From: Alphaproteobacteria bacterium
GTDB lineage: Bacteria > Pseudomonadota > Alphaproteobacteria > SMXQ01
Assembly: GCA_050485485.1 (NCBI GenBank)
Contig: JBJHBM010000001.1
Location: 114,916-178,915, forward strand
Direction of reading: 5' to 3'
Length of the DNA: 64,000 nucleotides
The first letter of the stretch is position 1. Each line of letters starts with the position of its first letter. A program made the translations under genes and the position numbers. Below, in pieces: positions 1,850-34,808 of the stretch. Below the pieces are notes generated by a model. It was not told the origin of the DNA, made no database searches, and worked only from the letters and a program-made list of their open reading frames with translations.

Positions 1850-2941
1850 ATGAAGACGTCACGCATCATGGGAGCAATGGCGGCGGCCGGGCTCGCCGGG
1901 GCCGTCCTGGCCACGGGCGACGCGCGCGCCGACGCGGTGGCAGATTTCTACAAGGGCAAGACCGTCACCATCTTGATCGGCTACGACACGGGCGGCGGCT
2001 ACGACCAGTACGCGCGCGTGCTCGCGCGTCATTACGACCGCCATATTCCGGGCCGTCCCAGCGTGGTGCCGCGCAACATGACCGGCGCCGGCTCCATCGT
2101 CGCTGCCAACGCGGTCTATAACTCGCTGCCTCAGGATGGCACCAACATCGCCGCGGTCGGCCGTGGCATCGCCATGGAACCGTTGTTCGGCCGCCAGGGG
2201 CCGCAGTTCGAGGGCACCAAGATCAACTGGATCGGTTCCATGAACAACGAGGTCTCGGTGTGCGTCGTGTGGCACGAGGCCAAGGCGCCGCGCATCCAGG
2301 ACGCGATGACGAAGGAGCTGATCATCGGTGGCACCGCACAGGGTTCTGACGGGGTCGATTTCCCGATCATCCTCAACAACGTTCTCGGCACCAAGTTCCG
2401 GCTGATCACGGGCTACCCCGGCGGCTCGTCGCAGATGCTCGCGATGGAGCGGCGCGAGATCGACGGCCGCTGCGGCTGGTCGTGGTCCTCGATCAAGGCG
2501 ACCCGGCCCAACTGGATCCGTGACAAGCAGATCGACGTGACCCTCCAGATCGCGCTCAAGGGCGATCCCGACCTCGACAAGCAGGGCGTGCCGCTGGTCA
2601 TGAACCTCGCCAAGGACGACCGCGACCGCCAGATCCTGCGCCTGATCTTCGCGCGCCAGACCATGGGCCGGCCGTTCATGGCGGGACCAGGCGTGCCGGC
2701 CGAGCGCGTCGCCGCGCTGCGCGCCGCCTTCGACGCCACCATGAAGGACCCGGCGTTTCTGGCGGACGCGGAGAAGGGCAAGATGGACATCGACCCGGTT
2801 TCCGGGCAGGAGGTCCAGGACCTCGTGGCCGAGCTCTACAAGACGCCCAAGGAGCTGGTCGAGGAGGCGGCCCGCGCCACGGCGCGCACCGACCGCACCA
2901 CGATCACCGAACGCAAGGCGGATGAGTCCAAGAAGAAGTAG
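1850..2941 (+). CDS. Bug/TctC-family periplasmic solute-binding protein (tripartite tricarboxylate transporter receptor)
   Basis: Start at ATG 1850, preceded by GGAGAGG. Signal peptide MKTSRIMGAMAAAGLAGAVLA. Family signature ADFYKGKTVTILIGYDTGGGYDQYARVLARHY...PGAGS. 364 aa. The C-terminus ends ...ADESKKK. Confidence 0.85.
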   Translation: MKTSRIMGAMAAAGLAGAVLATGDARADAVADFYKGKTVTILIGYDTGGGYDQYARVLARHYDRHIPGRPSVVPRNMTGAGSIVAANAVYNSLPQDGTNIAAVGRGIAMEPLFGRQGPQFEGTKINWIGSMNNEVSVCVVWHEAKAPRIQDAMTKELIIGGTAQGSDGVDFPIILNNVLGTKFRLITGYPGGSSQMLAMERREIDGRCGWSWSSIKATRPNWIRDKQIDVTLQIALKGDPDLDKQGVPLVMNLAKDDRDRQILRLIFARQTMGRPFMAGPGVPAERVAALRAAFDATMKDPAFLADAEKGKMDIDPVSGQEVQDLVAELYKTPKELVEEAARATARTDRTTITERKADESKKK

Positions 2942-6186: not shown

Positions 6187-7476
6187 ATGATGACGATTCG
6201 CTACAGTTTCGCCGCGCTGGCGGCCGGCGTCCTTGCCGCGGGCTTCCTGATGGCGCCGGCGCCGGCCGCGGCCGACCCCGTGGCCGACTTCTACAAGGGC
6301 AAGCGGATGGAGATGCTGATCGGCTACTCCTCCGGCGGCGGCTACGACACCTACGCGCGCGTGGTCGCGCGCCACTGGCCGCGCCTGATCCCCGCCCAGC
6401 CCACCATGACGCCGCGCAACGTGCCGGGCGCGGGTTCGATGCGGCTGATGAACGAGATGTACAACACCCGGCCCAAGGACGGCACCGCAGTCGCGACCGT
6501 CAGCCGCGGCATCGTCCACGAGGAGTTGTGGGGCAACCAGGGCGTCCAGTTTAGGGCCAACGAGATGCACTGGATCGGCAGCGCCAATAACGAGGTGAGC
6601 GTGTGTGCGTTCTGGAAGACCGCGCCCGCCGCCACCGTCAACGACCTGCTCAACAACGAGCTGGTGGTGGGCGGCACCGGGCCGGGCGCCGACACCGACG
6701 CCTTTCCGCAGGTGATGAACAACGTGTTCGGCAGCAAGCTCAAGCTGGTGACTGGCTACCCCGGCGGCAACGACATCAACTTCGCGATCGAGCGCGGCGA
6801 GGTCCAGGGACGTTGCGGCTGGTCGTGGTCGTCGGTGGTGGCCACGCGCGCCCAGTGGCTGAAGAACAAGGACATCCTGATCCCGATCCAGATGGCGCTG
6901 ACCAAGCACGCGGACCTGGCGGACGTGCCGCTGGTGATGGACCTCGCGCGCAACGAGCGCGAGAAGCAGCTTCTGACCCTGGTGTTCGCGCGCCAGACCA
7001 TGGGGCGTCCGTTCCTCACCACCGATCAAGTGCCGGCCGAGCGCGTCGCGATGCTGCGCAAGACCTTCATGCAGCTGATGGAGGACAAGCAGTTCCTGGC
7101 GGAAACCGAGAAGGCGCGCCTCGAGATCACCCCGGTTTCGGGTGAGGAGGTCCAGCAGCTCGTCTCCAGTCTGTTCCAGTTCCCGAAGGACGTGATCGAA
7201 GCCTCCAGGCTCGCCGCCAGCGACGCCGCACGCACCCAGGTGGTGAAGGCGGTGGTGCCGGAGGTGACGGTGACGGCGCGGGTCGCAGCCGTGCAGCGCG
7301 GCGGCGAGCGTGTCCAGTGGCAAGGCGACACCGCCAAGGGCCGCGTCAACCTCGACGGCAAGACCGAGGTGACCGTCGCCGGCAACAAGGCTACGGGCGC
7401 CGACCTGAAGGAAGGCATGACCTGCGACTTCAAGATTCTCGGCGTAGAGACGGCGCTGGCGATCGCCTGCAAGTAA
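6187..7476 (+). CDS. Bug/TctC-family solute-binding protein with an extra ~65-aa C-terminal domain ending ...GMTCDFKILGVETALAIACK
   Basis: ATG 6187 after GGGAG. Signal peptide, then ADFYKGKRMEMLIGYSSGGGYDTYARVVARHW...PGAGS. 430 aa versus ~325 aa for a canonical TctC. The C-terminal domain is homologous to the two small stand-alone proteins at 16622..17462 and to the tail of the TctC at 15031..16275. Confidence 0.8.
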   Translation: MMTIRYSFAALAAGVLAAGFLMAPAPAAADPVADFYKGKRMEMLIGYSSGGGYDTYARVVARHWPRLIPAQPTMTPRNVPGAGSMRLMNEMYNTRPKDGTAVATVSRGIVHEELWGNQGVQFRANEMHWIGSANNEVSVCAFWKTAPAATVNDLLNNELVVGGTGPGADTDAFPQVMNNVFGSKLKLVTGYPGGNDINFAIERGEVQGRCGWSWSSVVATRAQWLKNKDILIPIQMALTKHADLADVPLVMDLARNEREKQLLTLVFARQTMGRPFLTTDQVPAERVAMLRKTFMQLMEDKQFLAETEKARLEITPVSGEEVQQLVSSLFQFPKDVIEASRLAASDAARTQVVKAVVPEVTVTARVAAVQRGGERVQWQGDTAKGRVNLDGKTEVTVAGNKATGADLKEGMTCDFKILGVETALAIACK

Positions 7477-15030: not shown

Positions 15031-16275
15031 TTACTTGCAATCGATGGTGACGGGCTCGTTGTCGCCGCCCGGCTTGTAGTCGATCTCGCACGCCATGCCC
15101 GCCTTGAGGGCCTCCCGGGCTCCGGGCTTGCCGCCGATGGTGATCTTGGTGCGCGCGGCCGAGATCTTGGACTTGACGTCGTTGGCGCCGTGCTTGAAGG
15201 CGATCTCCCGCCCGTCCGGCGACACGGCGGACAGGGCGGTGGCCACCTTGCTGGCGGGCGGCACGATATTCAGGATATCCGCGACCATGGCGACGATTTC
15301 CGGCGGCTGGTCAAGGGCCTCGCGCACTTTGCGCGCGAGCTCTTCGCCGTAGAGCGGGTCGACCGGCCGGTCGGCCTTGATCGCCTGGGCCTGCAGCTCG
15401 GAGTCTTCCATCGCCTTGCGATAGGCCTCGACGAGGGTTTTGGCGCGGTCGGCCGGAATGCCCGGAGGGCCGGCCGTGAAGCGTGCGATCTCTGCCTGGG
15501 AGCCGACCAGCGCGACCACCGCCTTGGCGTTGCGCTCGGTCACGATCTCGGAAAGCAGCGGTACGCCCGGGGCCGCCTTGCCGCCGATCTGGGCGATGTA
15601 GCGGCCGTAGCCGTTCTTCACGAACAGCTCGGCCGAGGACTGGGAGCCGACGGAGGCGTCGATCTCGCCCCGGCGCATGGCCAGCTCCGCGTCGGTGCCG
15701 TCGTAGCCAAGGATCAGCTTCATGTTCCAGCCGAGCACCTTGGACAGCATCATGGTGTCGTTGTAGGCTGAAGAGCCGACGCCCGCCGAGGCAAAGCGGA
15801 CGGGCGCCCTGGCCGTCCTGAGGTCGTCGAGGGTCTTGAGGTCGGTCTGCGCCGCGGCCATGATGACGCGCGGGTCGCTCGCGGCCTTGCCGATCCAGGT
15901 CATCTTGGCGAGGTCGAAGCGCACGCCCTGGCGCCCCAGAAGCTGGGAGAAGATCAGCCCGGTGTTGAAGGTGCCGATGGTCTCGCCGTCGGGCTTCGCG
16001 GCATAGAGCAGGTTGGCGCCGATGATATGGCCGGCACCCGGCACGTTGCGCACGACGAAGGTCGAGCCGGGCAGGTGGTTCTGCATGTATCTGGCCACCA
16101 GGCGGCCGTAGAAGTCGTAGCCGCCGCCCGCCGCCGTTGCCACCACGTAGGTGACGTTCTTGCCCTTGTAGTAGTCGGCACCGTCGGCCGCTGCGGCCGC
16201 GCCCGCGAGCAGGGTAGCCCCGGCGGCGACCGCCGCGCCCAGGCGGAGGCTTCTCGTAAGTTTCGGTGTCATGGG
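15031..16275 (-). CDS. Bug/TctC-family solute-binding protein with the C-terminal small domain (...ALKAGMACEIDYKPGGDNEPVTIDCK)
   Basis: ATG 16275 after AAAGGA. Signal peptide MTPKLTRSLRLGAAVAAGATLLAGAAAA. ADYYKGKNVTYVVATAAGGGYDFYGRLVARYM...PGAGH. 415 aa. Confidence 0.8.
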   Translation of the reverse strand, partial: PMTPKLTRSLRLGAAVAAGATLLAGAAAAADGADYYKGKNVTYVVATAAGGGYDFYGRLVARYMQNHLPGSTFVVRNVPGAGHIIGANLLYAAKPDGETIGTFNTGLIFSQLLGRQGVRFDLAKMTWIGKAASDPRVIMAAAQTDLKTLDDLRTARAPVRFASAGVGSSAYNDTMMLSKVLGWNMKLILGYDGTDAELAMRRGEIDASVGSQSSAELFVKNGYGRYIAQIGGKAAPGVPLLSEIVTERNAKAVVALVGSQAEIARFTAGPPGIPADRAKTLVEAYRKAMEDSELQAQAIKADRPVDPLYGEELARKVREALDQPPEIVAMVADILNIVPPASKVATALSAVSPDGREIAFKHGANDVKSKISAARTKITIGGKPGAREALKAGMACEIDYKPGGDNEPVTIDCK

Positions 16276-22799: not shown

Positions 22800-23025
22800 A
22801 AACTCTAAAAATCCCCCCCTAAATCCGAGGTTAATCTCCTTGCCAGCGGGGGGTGCGGTTGTTACCGTCGACCCGTTTCCGGCGGGGCCGAGGGAGGCAG
22901 GCGCGACGCCGCCGGGAAGCGCAAGGGGGTCCCCTCACGAGACAGGTCCGGGTCAACCGGGCGAACGGCCTGCTGGGCGCACCCGCACGTGGCGCGGGCG
23001 CGCAGGGAGAACGGAGCTCGACCGC

Positions 23026-24369
23026 GTGCCAAGGCCCGATGCCAGGTTCGCAGCCCTGAGGACGCGCCTGCGCGGGCCGGCGCGGCGCCTCCGCGCCGCC
23101 CTCGCCGCGCCGTTCGTCGAGCGCCAGGTCCTGATCCGCGCCGACGGCCGGGTCCGGGCCGCGACCCTGGGGCCCCGCCTGCAGGCCGTCCTGCTCGTCC
23201 TTGCGGTCGCGACCGGCGCGTGGCTGGTCCACGCCTCGGTGGCGCGCATCGAGAGCGAGGGCGCGATCGCCGCCAAGGACCGCGAGATCGGCGCCCTCAA
23301 GCTCGCCTTCCGTAGCCTGCGCAACGACGTCGACCGCTCCGAGGCGCGCCTCAAGGCGCTGGCGCGCACCCTCGAGGCCAAGCACGCCCACCTGGTCGCC
23401 CTGCTCGGGCCCGAGGCCCTCGGCCCCGACGCCGCCCGCACCCTCGGCCTCGCGGAGGGCGACGACGCCCGTGCCCGCATCCAGGCGACCCGCAGCGAGC
23501 TCCTGGCCCAGCTCGGCGCCCTCGAGCTGGTGATGGAGGGGACCGCGCGCGCCGAGGGGCGCGACGACCGCGCCCGCGCCGCCGTGGAGGAGCGCCTGCG
23601 CCTCGGCGCCGCCGAGCGCACCCGCCTCGACCGCGACCGGCGCGAGCTGATCGCGCGCCTCGAGGCGCTGGAGGAGCGCCTCGCCGCCCTCAACCTGTCC
23701 CAGCGCGGCGTCGCCGCCCGCATGGCCGAGCGCACCGGCGACCAGGACGGGCGCATCAAGGAACTGATCGCCTCGGCCGGCGTCAACGTCGATGCCCTGC
23801 TCGCGCGCCTCGCCGTCGAGCCCGGCGGCGGCGCCGGTGGCCCCTTCATCGCCGCCGACGCGGCGACGCCCGCGGCGCGCGCCGTGCCCGCCAGCATCGG
23901 CAGCCTCGACCGCCACCTCGAAGACCTCGGCAACGTCCGCAAGCTCGCGCGCATCCTGCCGCTGGCCGCGCCCTCGGACCATTTCTACGTCTCCAGCACC
24001 TTCGGCAAGCGGCGCGACCCGCTCAACGGCCGCTGGGCGGCCCATTACGGCGTCGATCTCGCCGGCGTCCACCGCTCGCCGGTCCTCGCCACCGCGCCGG
24101 GCACCGTCACCTATGTCGGCTGGAACGGCAATTACGGCCGCATGGTGGAGATCGACCACGGCATGGGCATCCGCACCCGCTACGCGCATCTCCACCGCAT
24201 CCTCGTCAACGGGGGCCAGCAGGTGGACCTGCGCGACAAGGTGGGGGAGATGGGCTCGACCGGCCGCTCCTCCGGCACTCATGTCCATTACGAGGTGCTG
24301 GTCAACGGCCAGCCCAGGGACCCGGTCAGGTTCATGCAGGCAGGTGAACATGTTCTCAAAGGATTCTAA
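23026..24369 (+). CDS. M23/LytM-family metallopeptidase with N-terminal TM segment and long coiled-coil; start codon uncertain (ORF begins 22840)
   Basis: C-terminal M23 signatures HYGVDLAG...YVGWNGNYGRMVEIDHGMGIRTRYAHL...GEMGSTGRSSGTHVHYEV. N-terminal LQAVLLVLAVATGAWLV TM segment, then an Ala/Arg/Glu/Leu-rich coiled-coil. Confidence 0.8.
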   Translation: MPRPDARFAALRTRLRGPARRLRAALAAPFVERQVLIRADGRVRAATLGPRLQAVLLVLAVATGAWLVHASVARIESEGAIAAKDREIGALKLAFRSLRNDVDRSEARLKALARTLEAKHAHLVALLGPEALGPDAARTLGLAEGDDARARIQATRSELLAQLGALELVMEGTARAEGRDDRARAAVEERLRLGAAERTRLDRDRRELIARLEALEERLAALNLSQRGVAARMAERTGDQDGRIKELIASAGVNVDALLARLAVEPGGGAGGPFIAADAATPAARAVPASIGSLDRHLEDLGNVRKLARILPLAAPSDHFYVSSTFGKRRDPLNGRWAAHYGVDLAGVHRSPVLATAPGTVTYVGWNGNYGRMVEIDHGMGIRTRYAHLHRILVNGGQQVDLRDKVGEMGSTGRSSGTHVHYEVLVNGQPRDPVRFMQAGEHVLKGF

Positions 24370-24769
24370 GGGCAGCACGTCGGACGGGCGCGACCGCGTG
24401 CCGTCCATCATCAGCACGAGCCTGCGCATCGTCGGCGACCTCGTCTCGGACGGCGACGTCCAGGTGGACGGCATGATCGAGGGCGACGTCAAGGCGCGCT
24501 CCGTCACCGTCAGCGAAGGCGCCGCCGTGCGCGGCCAGATCGCCGCCGATAAGGTCTGCATCCGCGGCGAGGTCCACGGCCAGGTGACGGCGGGGAACGT
24601 GGAGCTCGGGCGGACCTGCCGCGTGATCGGCGACATCGTGCATCAAAGCCTGAGCATCGAGGCGGGGGCCTTCCTGGAAGGCTATTGCCGCCATCCCGAC
24701 CGGCCCGCGCCGCTGTCCTCGGCACCTGCGCCGGACTCCAAGGAGGCCGTGCGCCCCGTTTCAGCCTGA
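24350..24769 (+). CDS. Bactofilin (polymer-forming cytoskeletal protein, DUF583/CcmA family)
   Basis: ATG 24350 after AGGTGA, overlapping the M23 gene end by 20 nt. 139 aa with beta-helical G-rich repeats (VGDLVSDGDVQVDGMIEGDVKARSVTVSEGAAVRGQIAADKVCIRGEVHGQVTAGNVELG) and a Pro-rich tail. Confidence 0.75.
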   Translation: MFSKDSKGSTSDGRDRVPSIISTSLRIVGDLVSDGDVQVDGMIEGDVKARSVTVSEGAAVRGQIAADKVCIRGEVHGQVTAGNVELGRTCRVIGDIVHQSLSIEAGAFLEGYCRHPDRPAPLSSAPAPDSKEAVRPVSA

Positions 24770-25895: not shown

Positions 25896-26426
25896 ATGAC
25901 CGACAATTCCAGCGCGCTCGCCGTCCTGGCGGGGCGGATCGATGCGTTGAACGAGGCGCTCGGGCGCGTCGTCGCGTGGGGCTTCCTGGGGCTGGTGGCG
26001 CTCCAGTTCGCCGCCGTGGTGCTGCGCTACGTCTTCGGCCTCGGCTGGATCTGGCTCGAGGAATCGGTCATCTACGTCCATGCGACCCTGTTCATGGCGG
26101 GCGCCGCCTACACGCTGCTCCACGACGGCCACGTGCGGGTCGATATCTTCTACCAGGAGGCCGGGGCGCGCGCCCGGGCCTGGGTGGACCTGCTCGGCGC
26201 GCTCGGCCTCCTGGTCCCGGTGTCGGCGCTGATCCTGGCCTATAGCTGGCCCTACGTCGCGGCAAGCTGGGCGATCCTCGAGGGCTCGCCCGAATCGGGC
26301 GGTATTCCCGCCCTGTTCCTGCTCAAGTCCCTGATCCCGCTGTTCGCCGTGACCCTGATCCTGCAGGGCCTCTCGATGGCGGCGGGCGCGGCGCTCGCGC
26401 TCCGCCGGCGGGATGCGGCCGCGTGA
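25896..26426 (+). CDS. dctQ: TRAP transporter small permease subunit (DctQ)
   Basis: ATG 25896 after GGGAGG. 176 aa, 4 TM segments, typical DctQ length. The stop overlaps the dctM start. Confidence 0.8.
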   Translation: MTDNSSALAVLAGRIDALNEALGRVVAWGFLGLVALQFAAVVLRYVFGLGWIWLEESVIYVHATLFMAGAAYTLLHDGHVRVDIFYQEAGARARAWVDLLGALGLLVPVSALILAYSWPYVAASWAILEGSPESGGIPALFLLKSLIPLFAVTLILQGLSMAAGAALALRRRDAAA

Positions 26427-27985
26427 TGGCGACGGCGCTCGCCTTCGGCATGTTCGCGACGACCTGCGGGCTCCTGCTCGCGGGCTTTCCGGTCGCTTTC
26501 ACGCTGGCGGGCGGCGCGCTCGCCTTCGCCGTCCTCGGCAGCCTTCTCGGCGCGTTCGACATCGCTTTCCTCGGCGCCTTCGTGCCGCAGATCTTCGGGC
26601 GCATGACCAACGCCGTGCTGGTCGCGGTACCGCTGTTCGTGTTCATGGGCGTGATGCTGGAGCGCTCGCGCGTGGCCGAGGATCTGCTCGAGACTCTAGG
26701 CAACCTGTTCGGGCGCGTGACGGGCGGGCTCGGCATTGCCGTGATCCTGGTGGGTGCGTTGCTGGCGGCTTCCACCGGAATCATCGGCGCGACCGTGGTG
26801 ACGATGGGCCTGATCTCGCTGCCGACCATGCTGCGGCGCGGCTACGATCCCAGGCTCGCCGCCGGCTCGATCTGCGCGGCGGGCACGCTCGGCCAGATCA
26901 TTCCGCCCTCGCTGGTGCTGGTGCTGCTGGGAGAGGTGATGGCGACCGCCTACCAGCAGTCGCAGCTGCGGGCGGGCAATTTCGCGCCCGATACCCTGTC
27001 GGTGGGCGACCTGTTCGCAGGTGCGCTGCTGCCGGGGTTGGTGCTGGTCGGGCTGTTCCTCGTCTATCAGGTCGTGGCCGCCTGGTTGCGGCCGGAGGCG
27101 GCGCCGCCGGTGCGCGCGGCGGGCGAAGGACTCGCGCCGGGGGAAATCCGGCGGGTGGCGGTGGTGCTGGTACCGCCGGTGGCGCTGATCGTCGCCGTGC
27201 TGGGCTCGATCCTGGGCGGAATCGCCACGCCGACGGAGGCCGCGGCGGTGGGGGCCGTGGGCGCGACGCTGCTCGCGGCGCGGCGCATCGACCCCGGCGC
27301 GCGGACGGCGGTGTTCGTAACGCTGGCGGCGCTCGGGGCACTGCTGGCGCTCACCGCCTTCATGGACCTGCGCGTCGGTCGCGCCCAGGCGACGCTGGCC
27401 GAGCGCGTCGGCATCGGCGTCGCGGCCGTGCTGGCGGTTGCCGCGGCCTGGGGCACGGCGACGGCCTTCGTGCGGCTCCATCGTGCGGGCGTGCTCGGGC
27501 CGGTGATGCGGGGCTCTCTCACGATCACGGCGATGGTGTTCGCCATCCTGATCGGCGCGGCGCTGTTCGCGCTCGTGTTCCGCGGCCTCGGCGGGGACCA
27601 TGCCGTGCATGGTTTCCTGCAGGGCCTGCCGGGCGGGGTGGCGGGGGCGGTGATCCTGGTGATGGCGGTGATGTTCCTGCTCGGCTTCTTCCTCGACGTG
27701 ATCGAGATCATCTACGTCGTGGTGCCGATCGTCGCGCCGCCGCTCCTGCTGCTGGGGGTGGACCCGATCTGGCTCGGCGTGCTGATCGCGGTCAACCTGC
27801 AGACCAGCTTCCTCACGCCGCCGTTCGGCTTTGCGCTGTTCTACCTGCGCGGCGTCGCGCCCCCGGAGGTGCGCACCATCGACATATACCGGGGCGTGGC
27901 GCCGTTCATCGCGCTCCAGCTCCTGATGCTGGCGATCCTCGCGCTGTTCCCGGCGCTGGCCCTGTGGCTGCCGCGGGCGTTGTGA
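26426..27985 (+). CDS. dctM: TRAP transporter large permease subunit (DctM)
   Basis: About 520 aa polytopic membrane protein of DctM length, directly coupled to dctQ. Confidence 0.9.
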   Translation: MATALAFGMFATTCGLLLAGFPVAFTLAGGALAFAVLGSLLGAFDIAFLGAFVPQIFGRMTNAVLVAVPLFVFMGVMLERSRVAEDLLETLGNLFGRVTGGLGIAVILVGALLAASTGIIGATVVTMGLISLPTMLRRGYDPRLAAGSICAAGTLGQIIPPSLVLVLLGEVMATAYQQSQLRAGNFAPDTLSVGDLFAGALLPGLVLVGLFLVYQVVAAWLRPEAAPPVRAAGEGLAPGEIRRVAVVLVPPVALIVAVLGSILGGIATPTEAAAVGAVGATLLAARRIDPGARTAVFVTLAALGALLALTAFMDLRVGRAQATLAERVGIGVAAVLAVAAAWGTATAFVRLHRAGVLGPVMRGSLTITAMVFAILIGAALFALVFRGLGGDHAVHGFLQGLPGGVAGAVILVMAVMFLLGFFLDVIEIIYVVVPIVAPPLLLLGVDPIWLGVLIAVNLQTSFLTPPFGFALFYLRGVAPPEVRTIDIYRGVAPFIALQLLMLAILALFPALALWLPRAL

Positions 27986-28069
27986 GGCCCCGAGCCGCCA
28001 CGGAAAAAGGACGCCTCCCGTCAGGGAGGCGCCCCCGGATCCTTCGCGACGGTGCGCGGACCTATTTGT

Positions 28070-29146
28070 TCATTTTTTCTTGGGCTGGCTGCACAGGTCG
28101 CCCTGGCAGCGCCCGATCCCGCTCTCGTCCGCGAGGTATTCCTTGACCCGCGCGATCACCGCGGGCGGCGCGGTGAACAGTTCGTTGAGCAACTTGGCGA
28201 CCTGCTCGCCGTCGCGCGGCGAGATGTCCTGGCGGCGCTTCTCCGCGTCGGCCAGGTACTTCGGGTCCTGGACGGCCTTCGTGAAGGCGGCGCGATGCGT
28301 GGCCACTGCCTCCTTGGGCGTTCCCGGCGCGAGCGCGAACGGGACCGTGATCTCGCTCGGGGTCAGGAACAGCTGCATGGCGAGCTTGTCCTGGGGGTCC
28401 TTGATCAGGTTCATGATGTTGGGCACGCCCGGCGGCAGCTCGGGATTGGGGTCGATGGTCACGTCGAGCAGGAACTTCACCTTCTTCTCGCTGATCCAGT
28501 CGGGGCGGGACGTCTTGAGCGAATCGTAGGTCAGGCAGCGGCCGTCGACCTCGCCGCGCTCGACCGCGAGCACCGAGCCGGCCCCGCCGTAGCCTGCGAT
28601 CGGCTTCATCTTGGTGCCGAGCGTGCGGTTGACCATGATCGGCAGCAGCGTGGAGTTGGACCGCGCTCCGGTGGCGGAGATCGTCATCTCCTTGGCCTGC
28701 ATGTCCGCGACGTTGTTGAAGGGGTGGGTATGCCAGACGAAGCACATGCTGCGCCCGCTGGAAAGGCTGCCGACCCATTCGAAGCCGCGGATGTCGTAAT
28801 CGAGCTTTTCATCGCCGAAGGCCGCGGCCTGGATCGGCCCGCCCGCCATCGTCGTCATGGCGGTGCCGTCCTTGGCGCCCTGGGCGTAGGTGAAGGCGAC
28901 CGCCTGCATGCCGCCCGCGCCGAACATGTTGCGGACGATGATGGTGGGATTGCCCGGCAGGTGGTTGGCGTAATGCGGCATGAAGGTCCGCGTGAAAAGG
29001 TCCACCCCCGCGCCGGGCTGGCCGCCGGCATAGACGGTGATGGTCTTTCCCCTGAAGTCGGTCTGGGCCTGGAGCCCGCCCGACGACCAGAGCCCGGCAA
29101 GCAGCGCGCTCGCCGCCGTGAGCATCAGGTTCCGTGCAATGCGCAT
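28070..29146 (-). CDS. Bug/TctC-family solute-binding protein (orphan) with short C-terminal CxxxxC...KKK tail
   Basis: ATG 29146. Signal peptide MRIARNLMLTAASALLAGLWSSGG. TDFRGKTITVYAGGQPGAGVDLFTRTF...FGAGG. C-terminus ADESGIGRCQGDLCSQPKKK. 358 aa. Convergent with dctM. Confidence 0.85.
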   Translation of the reverse strand: MRIARNLMLTAASALLAGLWSSGGLQAQTDFRGKTITVYAGGQPGAGVDLFTRTFMPHYANHLPGNPTIIVRNMFGAGGMQAVAFTYAQGAKDGTAMTTMAGGPIQAAAFGDEKLDYDIRGFEWVGSLSSGRSMCFVWHTHPFNNVADMQAKEMTISATGARSNSTLLPIMVNRTLGTKMKPIAGYGGAGSVLAVERGEVDGRCLTYDSLKTSRPDWISEKKVKFLLDVTIDPNPELPPGVPNIMNLIKDPQDKLAMQLFLTPSEITVPFALAPGTPKEAVATHRAAFTKAVQDPKYLADAEKRRQDISPRDGEQVAKLLNELFTAPPAVIARVKEYLADESGIGRCQGDLCSQPKKK

Positions 29147-29301: not shown

Positions 29302-31368
29302 CTATTTCCCCAGCTCGTGGGGCGCGGCGACCTGCACCCGTCCGGCGTTGAACACGGCGCGGTAGACCTGGACGTTCTCGATCACGCGCTGGACGTAGTT
29401 GCGGGTTTCGTCGAACGGGATCAGCTCGATCCAGTCGATGGCGTCCACCCCGTCCGTGCGGAAGTCGCCGTTGCGGCGCAACCACTGGCGCGCCCGGCCC
29501 GGCCCGGCGTTGTAGGCGGCGAGCGCGAGGATGTAGGAGCCGTCGAACTCCCGTAGGACGCGCGCAAAATAGGCGGTGCCGATGGCGAGGTTGTAGTCGG
29601 GATCTTCGAGCAGCCGTTCGCGCGAGAACGGCAGGCCGATGTCGCGTGCGACCACCCGGGCCGTCGCCGGCATCACCTGCATCAGGCCGCGTGCGCCGGC
29701 CCAGCTCACGGCATCCGTGTTGAAGCCGCTTTCCTGGCGCATCAGCGCGAGCAGGACGCTCTCCTCCAGTCCGCGCAGGTCGCGCGGCAGCGGCCCGCGC
29801 GGCCAGCCCGCCTCGATCAGATGCACGCCTGCCCTGAGCGAATCCTTGGCCGCCCAGACGGCCACGTCGTGGCGGCCGGCGGCGAGCGCGATCCGTGCCG
29901 CGAGCGCGTGCTCGGCCGGGCTCTCGGCGAGCCGGACGAGATGGCGGACGAAGGTACGGAAGTGATCGGGCTCGCGGCTCGCGGCCATGATCTCCGCGGC
30001 GCGCACGACCTCGCGGCCGGCGAAGGCCGCGACGGCGGCGTCGCCGATGTCGGGCTCGGGCGGGATGGCATGTCCCTGGAGCGGGGCGGCCCCCTTGCCG
30101 TCGAGGCGCGCGACGGCAAGCTGGCCGTAGAACGTGGTGATGTGACGGGCGGCGCGTCCGTACCACGCGAGCGCAGTTTCCGTGTCGCCGAGCGCCTCGG
30201 CGGCGCGTCCGGACCAATAGGCGCCGCGCGCGAGGCTCACCGGGAAATTGACCTTCTCGTGGAGCCGCGTGAAGTGGGTCAGTGCGGTCTGCGGCTCCTT
30301 GAGGAAGCGGAGCGCGATGAAGCCCGCGAGCCACTCGGCTTCCGCGAAACCTTCGCCTTCGGTGTTGGGATGGTCGGCCGCGAGCCGGTAGGCGCGCGTG
30401 ACCTGGCCGGCGTCGAGCGCGCGACGCGCGAGGATATGCTGCTCGGTCCACACCAGGTCGGGGCGCGGAACGGTCTTGGGGATGTCCTTGAGCGCGTCGA
30501 GCGCATCGTCGTCGCGGCCCTTGCGGCGGCGCCAGCGCATGCGTTCGTAGACGAGGCCGGGATCGGAGGCCAGCTCGTCGGGCACGCGCCGGATCGCGCC
30601 GTCCACGCCGCCCTTCATGTCGCGCAGCGCCATGCGCGCGGTGGCGAGCGCGGCATGGCCGGCGCCCACGCGCCGCAGCATCCGGTTGGCCTCCCAGCCG
30701 CGTCCGTCCCACACCAGCCGGTCGAGACGGCGCGCGTGGTCCTCGGCGGTGAGATGGCGGCGGAAGCGGTCGTAGAAGGCGCGCTCCACGGCAGGCGGGA
30801 AATTGTGCTCGACCCAGGCCGCGCGGATCGCCTTTTCGGCGTCGTCGCGGCGGCCCGTGGCGAGCAGGGCGCCGGCGTGGTGCATCGCGCCCTTGGGCGT
30901 CACGGGCGGATATTTCGCGAACCAGTCGGCCACGCGGTCGGCGGGGACGGCGTCGTTCAGGGCCTCCTCGGCGGTCTCACGCATGGCGCGCTGGCGCGGC
31001 CAGTCGGGATGGGCCTCGATGAAGGCGGCAACCTCGTCGAAGGTGGCGCGTTCGCCGCCCGCGCTGAAGCGCGACCACGACACGATCTTCGCCACCACCG
31101 GATCGCCGGTCCGCTCGGCGAGGGCTTGCGCCTTGGGCCAGTCGCGCAGGCCGATGGCGGCGAACACGTGCTCGAGGCTGCGTTCGACGGGGGTGCGCGG
31201 CGGCACGGGGGCGAAGCGCGGGACGCCCGCCTGGGCGCTGCTCGCGCCGCTCGCCTGGGCGGCGCTGCTGGCGATGTCGTCGGCGGCCGCCGCCGCGCCC
31301 TGCGGCACGAGGGCCGCAAGGGCGGCGCACAGCGCGGCCGAAACCACGCCTTTCGGTAGCGAGACCAT
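29302..31368 (-). CDS. slt: Soluble lytic murein transglycosylase (Slt70 family)
   Basis: 688 aa with a signal peptide. Superhelical N-terminal domain. SLT catalytic motifs MRQESGFN, GLMQVMP and AYNAGPGR. Confidence 0.85.
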   Translation of the reverse strand: MVSLPKGVVSAALCAALAALVPQGAAAAADDIASSAAQASGASSAQAGVPRFAPVPPRTPVERSLEHVFAAIGLRDWPKAQALAERTGDPVVAKIVSWSRFSAGGERATFDEVAAFIEAHPDWPRQRAMRETAEEALNDAVPADRVADWFAKYPPVTPKGAMHHAGALLATGRRDDAEKAIRAAWVEHNFPPAVERAFYDRFRRHLTAEDHARRLDRLVWDGRGWEANRMLRRVGAGHAALATARMALRDMKGGVDGAIRRVPDELASDPGLVYERMRWRRRKGRDDDALDALKDIPKTVPRPDLVWTEQHILARRALDAGQVTRAYRLAADHPNTEGEGFAEAEWLAGFIALRFLKEPQTALTHFTRLHEKVNFPVSLARGAYWSGRAAEALGDTETALAWYGRAARHITTFYGQLAVARLDGKGAAPLQGHAIPPEPDIGDAAVAAFAGREVVRAAEIMAASREPDHFRTFVRHLVRLAESPAEHALAARIALAAGRHDVAVWAAKDSLRAGVHLIEAGWPRGPLPRDLRGLEESVLLALMRQESGFNTDAVSWAGARGLMQVMPATARVVARDIGLPFSRERLLEDPDYNLAIGTAYFARVLREFDGSYILALAAYNAGPGRARQWLRRNGDFRTDGVDAIDWIELIPFDETRNYVQRVIENVQVYRAVFNAGRVQVAAPHELGK

Positions 31369-31542
31369 GATCCTCACGCTCGGAAAGTTACGGCACACAG
31401 CGTCTCGGCGCCCCGTCGCGCCGGCTGTCCCCAAGGCGGCCCGTGCCGGCGGCGTGCGCCGGCTATTCTAGGGGAGGTTTTGGTTAATTCAATATTAGCG
31501 CCATTAGCGGCGCCAACGCTGCCGCCGCCGGGTCCGGACCGG

Positions 31543-33186
31543 CTACCGGCCACCCTCCGCCCGCATGAAGGCGCGCAGAGATTCCGCGTTGCGCTCGACC
31601 CAGTCGGCGGCGACGGCGGTGTTGTCGCGCTCGCCGCCCACCATGTCGAAAATCAGCGCGATGAGGTCTTCGTAGTCGATCGCGAACGCCTCCAGGAAGG
31701 CGGCAAGCTCGGGATGGGCCTCGGCGATGTAACGGGAATAGGCGCGGTGAACGGTGACGGGCGGGCCGCCGCAGGCGGCGGTGGAGCGGTCGTACCACGG
31801 GCTGCCCGCGGCGTCGTCCGCGAGCCGGTAGCAGCTCGGCGAATGGGGCCGTTCGTTCAGCACCACGAGGTCGTGCTTGCGCAGGATCCAGTGCGGGCCG
31901 TAGCAATAGAACGCGACCGGCAGTTGTGCCGCGATCAGGCGGTCGAGGCCGCGGTAGAAGTCGCGCTCGCTGCCGGTCACGAGATCGAAATGCTGCTCGT
32001 AGCGGTGGTCGCGGGCCTTGATTCGCTCGATGCGGGTCGATTGCCAGCCTTCCTCGCCGATCCAGATTTGGCCGCGGCCGTCGCCGGTCGTGTCGAACAG
32101 GCGGGCGACGGAGGGATTGGCGAGGGCGGTGCGGCTGCGGACGGAGAAGCGCGCCAGCACGTAGCGCGGCACGCAGATACCCTGGGTCGCGACATAGCGC
32201 GCCGCGCTCAGGTGGGCATGGTCGGTCAGGAAACGGCGGTGGTTGGGGAGCCAGACGTCGGGGTGGATGTCGTAGCTGCGGTCGGACGCCTCGATCCCCG
32301 CGAGGATATCCTCGTTGGGGGCGGACACGACGATGGCCTGGATCGGGAACAGCCGTTCGATCGCCGCCTGGAGGAGATGGCCGGCCACGATGGCGGAATC
32401 CCAGTTGGGGATGCCGATCCGGACCATGCGGCGGGGATCGATCGCGTCGGCTTCAGGGCCCAGGGAAAGCGCCGCCGGGGGCGGCGGGGGCAGGCTGCGC
32501 GAGGCCGATACCTTGGCCCGGGAGGCTTGCGCCGCCGCCAGCGGGCGCCAGCCGCCGTCGCGCAGCGCGATCAGGTTGGCGGAGGGCGTCGCGAAGGCGA
32601 TCTGCGCTTCCTGCGGCAGGCGGCCGAACACGATTCCCACCACCTCGCCTTGCGCGTTGATGACCGGGCTGCCGCTGCTGCCCTGGGCGACGTTGGCGGA
32701 GATCTGGTACATCGGCGCGTCGCCGCGCGTGCGGATGCCGCTCACGAGCCCGTGGGACAGGGTGCGCGCATAGCCGAGCGGGTTGCCGATCACGTAGATC
32801 GTCTCGCCGACCTCGGGCCGGGCCACCGCCTCCAGCCTGAGGGCGTTGGCGGAGCGCTCCACCACCTCGATGATGGCGGTGTCGGCGGCGGGATCCGCGG
32901 CGACCGTGCGGCGCAGGGTGTAGAACGCGCCGTCGGCGTCCTCGATCGTGAGGCTGCGGGCGTCGTTGACGACGTGGTGGTTGGTGGCGATCAGGTGCGG
33001 CGCGACGAAGAACCCCGTACCGCGGAATGCCTTGCCGAGCAGGTCGGTCTTGCCGATCGTGACGACCGCGCGCTCCGACGAACGGAATATCTCCTGCGGC
33101 GTAAGCTCCTGGCCGGCCGCTGGCGCGCCCGCGACGGCGAGGGCGCTCCAGATGGCGGCCAGGAGGACAAGCGTGGTCCGTATCAT
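31543..33186 (-). CDS. Secreted trypsin-like serine protease (S1C) fused to a C-terminal OpuAC/ProX-type (glycine-betaine/choline-type) substrate-binding domain
   Basis: Signal peptide MIRTTLVLLAAIWSALAVAGA. Protease motifs ATNHHVV, ...D and GSSGSPV form the catalytic triad. The C-terminal ~280 aa start VRIGIPNWDSAIVAGHLLQAAIERL..., and with ...IWIGEEGW... they resemble ABC-type quaternary-amine binding proteins. Confidence 0.7.
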   Translation of the reverse strand: MIRTTLVLLAAIWSALAVAGAPAAGQELTPQEIFRSSERAVVTIGKTDLLGKAFRGTGFFVAPHLIATNHHVVNDARSLTIEDADGAFYTLRRTVAADPAADTAIIEVVERSANALRLEAVARPEVGETIYVIGNPLGYARTLSHGLVSGIRTRGDAPMYQISANVAQGSSGSPVINAQGEVVGIVFGRLPQEAQIAFATPSANLIALRDGGWRPLAAAQASRAKVSASRSLPPPPPAALSLGPEADAIDPRRMVRIGIPNWDSAIVAGHLLQAAIERLFPIQAIVVSAPNEDILAGIEASDRSYDIHPDVWLPNHRRFLTDHAHLSAARYVATQGICVPRYVLARFSVRSRTALANPSVARLFDTTGDGRGQIWIGEEGWQSTRIERIKARDHRYEQHFDLVTGSERDFYRGLDRLIAAQLPVAFYCYGPHWILRKHDLVVLNERPHSPSCYRLADDAAGSPWYDRSTAACGGPPVTVHRAYSRYIAEAHPELAAFLEAFAIDYEDLIALIFDMVGGERDNTAVAADWVERNAESLRAFMRAEGGR

Positions 33187-33441
33187 GGCCCACCTCCCGG
33201 TCCTGTTTCTTCCCGGCGCGCCATCTTGTGCGGCGTCGCAATGCCATACACTATCAAATTACCTCAAAAATAGGTAACATATTTGCTTGTTCACGCAAGT
33301 GAGGATGTGGCGTGCCGGCCTTCCCGGTAGCCGGAAGCCGGCCGGGAGCCGGCTTGGCAGCCTCTGCGGCGCGGTCTATGGTGCGCCCCACGCCGCAGGG
33401 CCGGGGCGCGCCGGCGGCCTCGCGAAGCTCGGGAGACGAGA

Positions 33442-34314
33442 ATGTTCAAGGGTTCCTTCACCGCGCTGATCACCCCGTTCCGGGGCGGCAAGGTGGACGA
33501 GAAGGCCTACCGGGACCTGGTCGAGCGCCAGATCGCGGCGGGCACGCACGGCCTGGTGCCGTGCGGCACCACCGGCGAATCGCCGACCCTCAGCCACGAG
33601 GAGCACATGCGCGTCACCGAGCTGTGCATCGAGGTGGCGAAGGGGCGCGTGCCGGTGATCGCGGGGACCGGCTCCAATTCCACCGAGGAGGCGATCACGC
33701 TGCAGCGCCACGCCAAGGAGGCGGGGGCCGATGCCGGGCTGGTGGTGACGCCCTACTACAACAAGCCGACCCAGGCCGGGCTGCTCGCGCACTACCGCGC
33801 GATCGCGGACGCGGTCGAGCTGCCGATCGTCATCTACAATATCCCCGGCCGCTCGGTGATCGACATGACGGTGGCGACGATGGCGGAGCTCGCGAAGCAT
33901 CCCAACATCGTCGGCGTCAAGGACGCGACCGCCGACCTCGCGCGGCCGCTGCGCACCCGGCTCGCCTGCGGCCCCGACTTCTGCCAGCTGTCGGGCGAGG
34001 ACGCGACCGCGGTGCCGTTCCTGGCCCAGGGCGGGGTGGGGTGCATCTCCGTCACCTCCAACATCGCTCCGCGCGAATGCGCCGCGCTGCACGACGCCTG
34101 GATGAAGGGCGACATGGCGACGGTGACGCGCCTCAACGACCTGCTGCTGCCCGTCCACGACGCGATGTTCTGCGAATCGAGCCCGGGGCCGGCCAAGTAC
34201 GCGGCCGAGCTGATGGGCCTGTGCGCGGGCGAGCTCAGGCTGCCGCTGGTACCGGTCTCGGACGCCGCGCGCCGGCGGGTCAAGGACGCGCTCGAGGGCG
34301 CGGGGCTGCTCTAG
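33442..34314 (+). CDS. dapA: 4-hydroxy-tetrahydrodipicolinate synthase
   Basis: [13 protein letters not shown]...GTTGE...active-site Lys region. 290 aa. Confidence 0.9.
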
Positions 34315-34319
34315 CGGCG

Positions 34320-34808
34320 ATGGCGAGGAAGGCCGCGCAGGCCGCCCGCGTCGAGGCGCAGCGCTACGTCGCCCAGAACCGCAAGGCGCGCCGCGACTAC
34401 GAGATCGCCGAGACGCTGGAGGCGGGGCTCGTGCTGACGGGCTCGGAGGTCAAGGGGCTGCGCGCGGGCGGCGCCAACCTCAACGACGCCTACGCGCGCG
34501 AGCAGGGCGGCGAGATCTGGCTGCTCAACGCCCATATCCCGGAATACCGGTTCGCCAACCGCGACGGCCACGCGCCCAAGCGCCCGCGCAAACTGCTGCT
34601 CCACAGGCGCCAGGTGGAGAAGCTGATCGGGGCCACCCAGCGCGAGGGCGTCACGGTGGTGCCGCTTTCGATCTACTTCAACGCGCGCGGCCGCGCCAAG
34701 GTCGAGCTCGGGCTCGCGCGCGGCCGGCGCAAGTTCGAGAAGCGCGAGGTCGAGAAGAAGCGCGACTGGCAGCGCGAGAAGGCGCGCGTGATGCGCGACA
34801 AAAGCTAG
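34320..34808 (+). CDS. smpB: SsrA-binding protein SmpB
   Basis: 162 aa. [13 protein letters not shown]..., [10 protein letters not shown] and [11 protein letters not shown] motifs. Confidence 0.9.

Follow-up and report, generated by a model that had tools for sequence, protein, structure and literature searches.

Proteases of the HtrA group (DegP, DegQ, DegS; MEROPS family S1C) are exported chymotrypsin-fold enzymes with a His-Asp-Ser triad and the motifs TNxHV and GxSGxP, in which an N-terminal catalytic domain is followed by a C-terminal binding module, the PDZ domain, that senses peptides and gates activity. S1C domains also work without a PDZ domain, for example in MarP of Mycobacterium tuberculosis (Rv3671c), whose N-terminal transmembrane helices serve as an anchor, and in RsgI9, where the S1C domain is part of an anti-sigma factor. 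The substrate-binding proteins (SBPs) of ATP-binding cassette (ABC) importers have been co-opted as sensor modules in kinases, chemoreceptors, cyclases and at least one cell-wall glycosidase. A 2021 review of SBP signalling describes the OpuAC-type protein CosB, which signals to a transducer, and the words "protease" and "peptidase" are absent from its text (PMC8050422). Another account summarises the lytic transglycosylase MltF of Pseudomonas aeruginosa, whose catalytic module is regulated by a module of the ABC-type binding-protein fold that resembles amino-acid-binding proteins, and the same source describes LpqZ, an orphan ProX-like lipoprotein of mycobacteria that binds the arabinosyltransferase AftA in envelope biogenesis and whose canonical pocket is reported to be less conserved (PMC12802301). 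Here we describe a gene from a 64,000-nucleotide stretch of the alphaproteobacterial contig JBJHBM010000001.1 (assembly GCA_050485485.1; the whole stretch is called the window below), whose 547-residue product joins an S1C-type protease domain to a ProX/OpuAC-type substrate-binding domain. This fusion is a real, rare, conserved and uncharacterised architecture that combines known kinds of parts, namely S1C proteases with accessory modules and SBP domains in non-transport roles; our search of the literature found no description of a Trypsin_2-OpuAC protein.

The initial annotation, made from the sequence, had read the N-terminal half as an S1C-type protease with its catalytic His in ATNHHV and its Ser in GSSGSPV, and the C-terminal half as OpuAC/ProX-like, and both assignments stand. 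Pfam places Trypsin_2 at residues 56-185 (E=9.3e-28), and the domain has the double beta-barrel fold and the His-Asp-Ser order with TNxHV and GxSGxP that characterise peptidase family S1C, with H71 and S171 in the two motifs named above and D102 as the third residue of the triad. Sequence matches of this half in the PDB include the S1C domain of RsgI9 (7sjy, E=1.7e-15), DegP-like proteases, HtrA of T. maritima and M. tuberculosis Rv3671c (3k6y/3k6z, E about 6e-14), with E values from 1e-15 to 1e-13 overall. Similarly, Foldseek aligns the modelled domain (residues 30-210, pLDDT about 85) with DegP, DegS, DegQ, HtrA1 and MarP at E values of about 1e-15 and TMt values of up to 0.83. The triad and the motifs TGFF, TNxH and GSSGxP are invariant in all 11 aligned members of the family, and the triad motifs are also found in three further members (P0101-P0103). 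Judged by these residues, the protease half is catalytically complete. A Pfam scan of the fusion detected no PDZ family at E values up to 1.

The C-terminal half, far from failing OpuAC/ProX profiles, matches Pfam OpuAC (PF04069) over residues 255-531 with 113.7 bits against a cut-off of 21.2 bits (E=1.4e-32; profile positions 3-256 of 257). Taken alone, it has E. coli ProX as its best match among PDB sequences, and by Foldseek it shows the bilobal type II binding-protein fold of ProX (1r9l, TMt 0.75), lactococcal OpuAC (3l6h, 0.82), Borrelia burgdorferi ProX (3tmg, 0.77), TmoX (4xz6, 0.74) and DmpX (7yle, 0.70), with 16-18% identity over the structural alignments to ProX/OpuAC. Profile and pairwise alignments (1r9l, 2b4l, 3l6g) bring the glycine-betaine site residues W65, W140, W188 and H69 of E. 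coli ProX, of which H69 contacts the carboxylate, onto W312, W381, Y429 and H316 of the fusion, which by alignment predicts an aromatic cage with Tyr in the third position, and the cage Trp in the "NWDS" motif of Bacillus and Lactococcus OpuAC falls on W262. Conservation of the cage, which the initial annotation had proposed to check, is high: among the 14 fused members W312 is kept in 13, W381 and Y429 in all 14 and H316 in 11, at a mean column identity of about 50%, and W262 is kept in seven of the 11 aligned members. The cage residues are also invariant across stand-alone, YkuD-linked, membrane-fused, tandem and transporter-linked relatives of the domain; since the transporter-linked relatives keep them, the pocket appears to be the ancestral functional one. 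Four cysteines of the binding domain (Cys338, Cys428, Cys452 and Cys472) are invariant as well, a feature that would fit an oxidising compartment.

The linker between the two domains is 42-61 residues long in all members, is unconserved in sequence and consists to 50-66% of Pro, Ala, Gly, Ser and Thr. A single-chain AlphaFold model, computed from an alignment of 11 sequences, shows both expected folds as two confident domains (mean pLDDT 77.9, pTM 0.52). An equivalent hydrophobic N-terminus is present in nine of the 11 aligned members, and the remaining two are N-terminally truncated. Because this segment is hydrophobic and has no lipobox, and because of the four invariant cysteines, we predict that a Sec-type signal peptide, presumably cleaved, directs the fusion protein to the periplasm; the initial annotation had called the protease secreted, a term better replaced by Sec-type export to the periplasm.

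The fusion is one native gene. The open reading frame starts with ATG, its product is an exact match to P0001 of the protein collection, and the GC content at third codon positions (GC3) differs little between the halves (protease 0.94, SBP 0.90) and from that of the neighbouring genes (0.90-0.97). A BLASTP search of 5.8 billion protein clusters yielded 11 that have the complete architecture and are 33-54% identical to the query (32-55% in a MAFFT alignment), and an exhaustive HMM search of 1.84 billion representatives at 50% identity added P0101-P0103, for 14 in total. In a scan of genome contigs from 185,579 species represented by one genome each, there was a single full-length relative, in an uncultured alphaproteobacterial metagenome-assembled genome (MAG); a further member comes from marine Alphaproteobacteria MAGs, and a scan of metagenome contigs gave one fragment. 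The fusion thus recurs in other genomes, rarely, and with 14 clusters in 5.8 billion and one genome in 185,579 the architecture is as unusual as had been supposed. All 14 clusters, which were independently assembled, have the same uninterrupted two-domain architecture (506-572 amino acids in the complete ones) with the invariant triad, the cage and a linker in every member. The probability that the reading frame is an artefact, whether a decaying pseudogene or a frameshift or assembly join of two genes, is negligible given this recurrence, the uniform GC3 and the proper Shine-Dalgarno sequence and start codon; the joined-gene explanation, which the initial annotation had itself raised, is ruled out by the conservation of the family together with the uniform GC3.

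Length and architecture that stay the same at 32-55% identity suggest purifying selection on the fusion. In a neighbour-joining tree of 181 binding domains, with bootstrap values from a 75-taxon subset, the 14 protease-fused domains and one stand-alone protein (P0105) form one clade (bootstrap 63/100), with YkuD-linked, membrane-fused and tandem forms on the side of that clade and the three transporter-linked proteins outside it. On this evidence the fusion is of single origin, and its architecture has been kept down to about 32% identity. P0105 was considered as a split fusion and rejected, as no protease remnant lies 5' of its gene. In public databases the fused proteins (P0002, P0008, P0098 and relatives) bear the name "glycine betaine ABC transporter substrate-binding protein", in which the protease half is ignored.

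HtrA proteins are the best structural matches of the protease half and share with the fusion the plan of an N-terminal catalytic domain and a C-terminal binding module. The fusion, however, has no PDZ domain, and its accessory module, an SBP domain of about 290 residues, is attached through some 40 disordered linker residues; the fusion scores 81.5 bits against the 416-bit cut-off of the NCBIfam model degP_htrA_DO. Because the defining PDZ domain is absent, the fusion does not belong to the HtrA family in the strict sense. MarP and RsgI9 are among the closest relatives of the protease half (MarP model NF033740, E=1e-23) and likewise lack a PDZ domain, but neither has an SBP domain, the fusion does without the membrane anchor of MarP and it reaches 84 bits against the 250-bit MarP equivalog cut-off. 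NCBIfam yields sub-threshold matches only, to MarP, to the HtrA, DegP and DegS models and to ProX. The nearest protease-only relatives have a TPR, PDZ or FHA domain at the equivalent C-terminal position. One of the best matches of the protease half, P0104 (662 amino acids), consists of three Trypsin_2 domains in tandem.

With ProX of E. coli and OpuAC of B. subtilis and L. lactis the binding half shares the PF04069 fold and aligned ligand-site residues. In contrast to these proteins, the fused domain is internal, not directly behind the signal peptide, and is not encoded with a permease or ATPase; its third cage position is Tyr and not Trp, and the Cys136-Cys142 pair of ProX is missing, with the four other invariant cysteines present instead. 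The nearest functional analogy is MltF, in which a periplasmic hydrolase and an SBP-fold module likewise share one exported polypeptide. MltF is nevertheless an SLT glycosidase and not a serine protease, its module belongs to the amino-acid-type SBP class and not to OpuAC, and it is a lipoprotein whose modules are packed together, whereas the fusion has a long disordered tether. LpqZ resembles the fusion in being a ProX homologue that is encoded without a transporter and repurposed for cell-envelope biology; it is, however, a stand-alone protein with a poorly conserved pocket, whereas the fusion has a highly conserved pocket and a covalently fused enzyme.

A profile search with the C-terminal domain found hundreds of stand-alone SBPs of about 320 amino acids, and we examined the gene contexts of six of them. 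Three more distant ones (P0329, P0291 and P0252; 29-31% identity) each precede genes for an ABC ATPase and for a permease of about 510 amino acids. The three closest ones (P0250, P0254 and P0249; 36-39%) each have a YkuD L,D-transpeptidase gene 10-15 bp downstream, followed by a small lipoprotein of about 115-120 amino acids with the conserved motif "ETAPADLQL.CA". These SBP-YkuD-lipoprotein modules lie in unrelated neighbourhoods, their cage is intact, there are no transporter genes in the neighbourhoods L085-L089, and we found no account of such a module in the literature. One of them (L086) is divergent from an ECF sigma factor gene and a weak zf-HC2 anti-sigma-like gene. In addition, seven multi-pass membrane proteins of 885-932 amino acids (P0157, P0161, P0174, P0175, P0192, P0202 and P0203) have a ProX-like domain of this subtype, its cage intact, at the C-terminus; their N-terminal domain of about 600 residues has no Pfam match, and the proteins may be tethered sensors or an unrecognised transporter class. 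In other relatives the domain and a second SBP are arranged in tandem. P0190 (756 amino acids, on one 8.4-kb ENA contig) combines an OpuAC-type domain at residues 27-327 with a C-terminal Reprolysin/M12B metalloprotease whose HExxHxxGxxH motif is intact (HELGHNLGANH), and its nearest relatives are OpuAC and PBP_like_2 tandem proteins. It adds a second class of protease to this kind of domain; as a singleton in 5.8 billion clusters, it was given little weight as an independent recurrence of a protease fusion. The picture suggested by these relatives is one in which an ancestral transport SBP kept its ligand site while one branch lost the transporter and became attached to envelope proteins.

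The fusion gene itself was compared across five independent contexts: the window and the four further lineages whose contigs were usable (L001, L002-L004, L094 and L099). None of them contains an ABC_tran or BPD_transp_1 gene, the SBP domain at these five loci is neither encoded nor fused with a permease and ATPase, and no ProV or ProW homologue lies within the whole 64-kb window. A tblastn comparison of all neighbours revealed no conserved partner in the five contexts, which share only TctC/Bug-type paralogues and, in two of them, a PIMT-like gene. The fusion gene looks monocistronic.

The interpretation that we favour, with a probability of roughly 45%, is that the fusion is a ligand-controlled protease in which a transport-independent, ligand-competent SBP domain replaces the PDZ domain and governs a periplasmic protease by gating or targeting it. 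The protein would follow an HtrA-like plan, with the catalytic domain first and a ProX-type Venus-flytrap module behind it, linked by a flexible tether about 40 residues long, and the SBP domain would take the role that PDZ, TPR or FHA domains have in the nearest protease relatives, setting when or where the protease cuts. The binding domain would still bind a small quaternary-ammonium compound (betaine-, choline- or carnitine-like) in the periplasm, and ligand-driven closure of its lobes would control the tethered protease rather than import. Closure may relieve an auto-inhibitory contact, or the closed domain may dock on a membrane or envelope partner and bring the protease there; docking or targeting is favoured over rigid allostery, given the length, disorder and variability of the linker and the lack of packing between the domains in the model. 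Envelope proteolysis would in this way depend on an osmolyte or a host-derived amine signal, by analogy with PDZ-gated DegS and DegP and with the SBP-like regulatory module of MltF. A more specific version, in which the fusion would be the first Venus-flytrap-gated protease and would convert the periplasmic level of an osmolyte or of choline into regulated proteolysis, would be new and is on balance doubtful, though likelier than the reading of trimethylammonium marks discussed below.

Several observations weigh against a ligand-controlled protease. The clade of fused domains reaches a bootstrap of just 63/100, in one member (P0010) W312 and H316 are replaced by Arg and Met, and conservation of the cage does not by itself prove binding, because Trp is often conserved for structural reasons. 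The idea of a recurrent coupling to proteases gains little from P0190, because that M12B fusion is a singleton. As no neighbour is conserved, the gene contexts give no clue to a dedicated target. The model, with its pTM of 0.52 and a linker pLDDT below 40, contains no confident contact between the domains, which disfavours tight allostery, although its input was limited to 11 sequences, and all the steps of the mechanism beyond an intact binding domain are ones that we infer.

The binding domain might instead be a ligand-independent docking or scaffold module that keeps the protease bound to a fixed partner in the envelope, much as in LpqZ, with the pocket persisting for structural reasons. 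Orphan SBP-like proteins do act in this manner (PMC12802301), the fusion gene is an orphan in every context, its closest stand-alone relatives are paired with the envelope enzyme YkuD and not with a transporter, and the cage of P0010 is partly degenerate. Yet the cage positions are among the most conserved (13-14 of 14, with the His in 11 of 14) at 32-55% overall identity, and because the pocket is so highly conserved here, whereas that of LpqZ is reported to be less conserved (PMC12802301), we regard pure scaffolding as unlikely. It is also conceivable that the fusion is still a transport SBP for a betaine-type solute with its importer encoded elsewhere, and that the protease is an add-on which frees or scavenges substrate or clears the periplasmic face of the transporter. 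The public annotation of the members and the intact pocket speak for such a role, as does the extent of the source genome that was inspected, namely 64 kb, which leaves room for a partner elsewhere. Moreover, tethered binding domains can stay competent for transport, as in OpuA of L. lactis (PDB 7ahc, among the matches). Against this, OpuAC-type ligands are not products of proteolysis, the fused domains group with the non-transport relatives in the tree, and a role in transport is disfavoured because no permease or ATPase lies near the fusion in five lineages, whereas all three transporter-linked relatives have an SBP-ATPase-permease operon; we consider it quite unlikely.

A further alternative retains a functional cage and gives it a different ligand, a trimethylammonium group borne by a macromolecule, such as the headgroup of phosphatidylcholine or a betaine lipid, trimethyl-lysine, or an N-terminally trimethylated envelope protein, so that the domain would anchor the protease on the leaflet or steer it to marked substrates. 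The conserved cage would be compatible with such a reader, and the long flexible tether would suit an enzyme that is anchored and reaches out. The members come from Alphaproteobacteria, many of which make phosphatidylcholine, and in one lineage (L099) the fusion gene is flanked by four methyltransferase genes. Those enzymes, however, are generic, with none identifiable as a lipid or protein-lysine N-methyltransferase, and the association is absent from the other four contexts. In addition, the carboxylate-contacting His is kept, which fits free betaine better, and Venus-flytrap closure round a tethered group would be sterically demanding. We judge this alternative improbable, and the same holds for its extension to a mark-directed protease that reads trimethylammonium marks on envelope macromolecules and whose YkuD-linked and membrane-fused sisters use the same reader to position further envelope enzymes. 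A ligand-controlled protease remains our preferred reading.

The features of the fusion gene and its surroundings are collected in Table 1. No site on the minus strand 5' of the fusion gene passed a promoter consensus scan, and the promoter entered there is for that reason putative.

Table 1. Features of the protease-SBP fusion gene, its neighbours and related loci (positions refer to the window unless a locus is named)
Feature	Position	Strand	Basis or remark
Complete protease-SBP fusion gene	31543..33186	-	ORF list, Pfam domains, P0001 match, uniform GC3
Predicted signal peptide, residues 1 to about 25, MIRTTLVLLAAIWSALAVAGAPAAG, without lipobox Cys	33112..33186	-	Sequence inspection; model helix 2-19
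S1C (HtrA/MarP-like) chymotrypsin-fold serine protease domain, residues 30-210	32557..33099	-	Pfam, PDB matches, Foldseek
Catalytic H71	32974-32976	-	Codon verified
Catalytic D102	32881-32883	-	Codon verified
Catalytic S171	32674-32676	-	Codon verified
Disordered Pro/Ala/Ser-rich inter-domain linker, residues 211-250	32437..32556	-	pLDDT <50 at residues 212-248
ProX/OpuAC-type (class F) substrate-binding domain, residues 251-542	31561..32436	-	Pfam, profile alignment, Foldseek, conservation
Predicted cage W312	32251-32253	-	Codon verified
Predicted cage W381	32044-32046	-	Codon verified
Predicted cage Y429	31900-31902	-	Codon verified
H316	32239-32241	-	Codon verified
Accessory W262	32401-32403	-	Codon verified
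Shine-Dalgarno GGGAGG	33193..33198	-	6 nt 5' of ATG, sequence inspection
AT-rich putative promoter region	about 33230-33285	-	Upstream of Shine-Dalgarno, inspection
SLT lytic transglycosylase gene (slt)	29302-31434	-	
dapA	33442-34314	+	
dapA-smpB/fusion/slt neighbourhood	29302-34808		
TctC/Bug-family paralogue	1922-2875	+	
TctC/Bug-family paralogue	6289-7197	+	
TctC/Bug-family paralogue	15253-16173	-	
TctC/Bug-family paralogue	28151-29056	-	
ORF	22831-24636	-	No Pfam match
ORF	26413-28146	+	No Pfam match
P0009 fusion gene with flanking methyltransferase genes	L099:3706-9022		
SBP-YkuD-lipoprotein module	L085:6001-8058		Unrelated neighbourhoods
SBP-YkuD-lipoprotein module	L086:6001-8031 (also L087)		Unrelated neighbourhoods
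SBP-YkuD-lipoprotein module	L088:6001-8106 (also L089)		Unrelated neighbourhoods

In the window the fusion gene lies between the divergent dapA-smpB pair and the co-directional gene of an SLT lytic transglycosylase, with a TctC-type binding protein gene beyond the latter. The slt, dapA and smpB genes are usually adjacent in Alphaproteobacteria, and the fusion gene may be an insertion into this cluster. A functional link between the fusion and slt or dapA was considered and dropped, as it is unsupported in the other lineages and slt has a promoter-like site of its own. There are at least four TctC/Bug-family paralogues in the window, which probably represent a family expansion. The housekeeping proteins encoded in the window are singletons at 90% identity. 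Two long ORFs in a stretch of 72-74% GC may be spurious high-GC reading frames or novel genes, and no tRNA or rRNA gene and no Rfam family at the gathering threshold was detected in the 64 kb.

Elsewhere the fusion gene adjoins a divergent TctC-like gene and DUF4440 (L001, with a PIMT-like gene at a distance of about 2 kb), or stands between a histidine kinase gene and tamA/tamB (L002-L004) or between an HIT gene and comM (L094). Of the four methyltransferase genes that flank the gene of the member P0009 at L099, NCBIfam identifies one as a true PIMT and another as a member of the FkbM family; the remaining two resemble UbiG or MetW and score below the family cut-offs. Methyltransferase neighbours are suggestive given a cage that would read methyl-ammonium groups, but they are generic, and the pattern is absent from the other lineages; as a clue to a methylated ligand the cluster was rejected, as it holds generic enzymes only.

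If the fusion is a ligand-controlled protease, osmolytes or host-derived amines would have a simple, new way of bringing about post-translational changes in the envelope, and the fusion would offer a natural scaffold for ligand-switchable proteases. It is misleading to name the products of the fusion genes glycine betaine ABC transporter substrate-binding proteins, as current annotation does. The existence of a non-transport branch of ProX-like domains that is associated with a protease, an L,D-transpeptidase operon and a membrane protein suggests that quaternary-amine recognition may have an unrecognised role in envelope biology.

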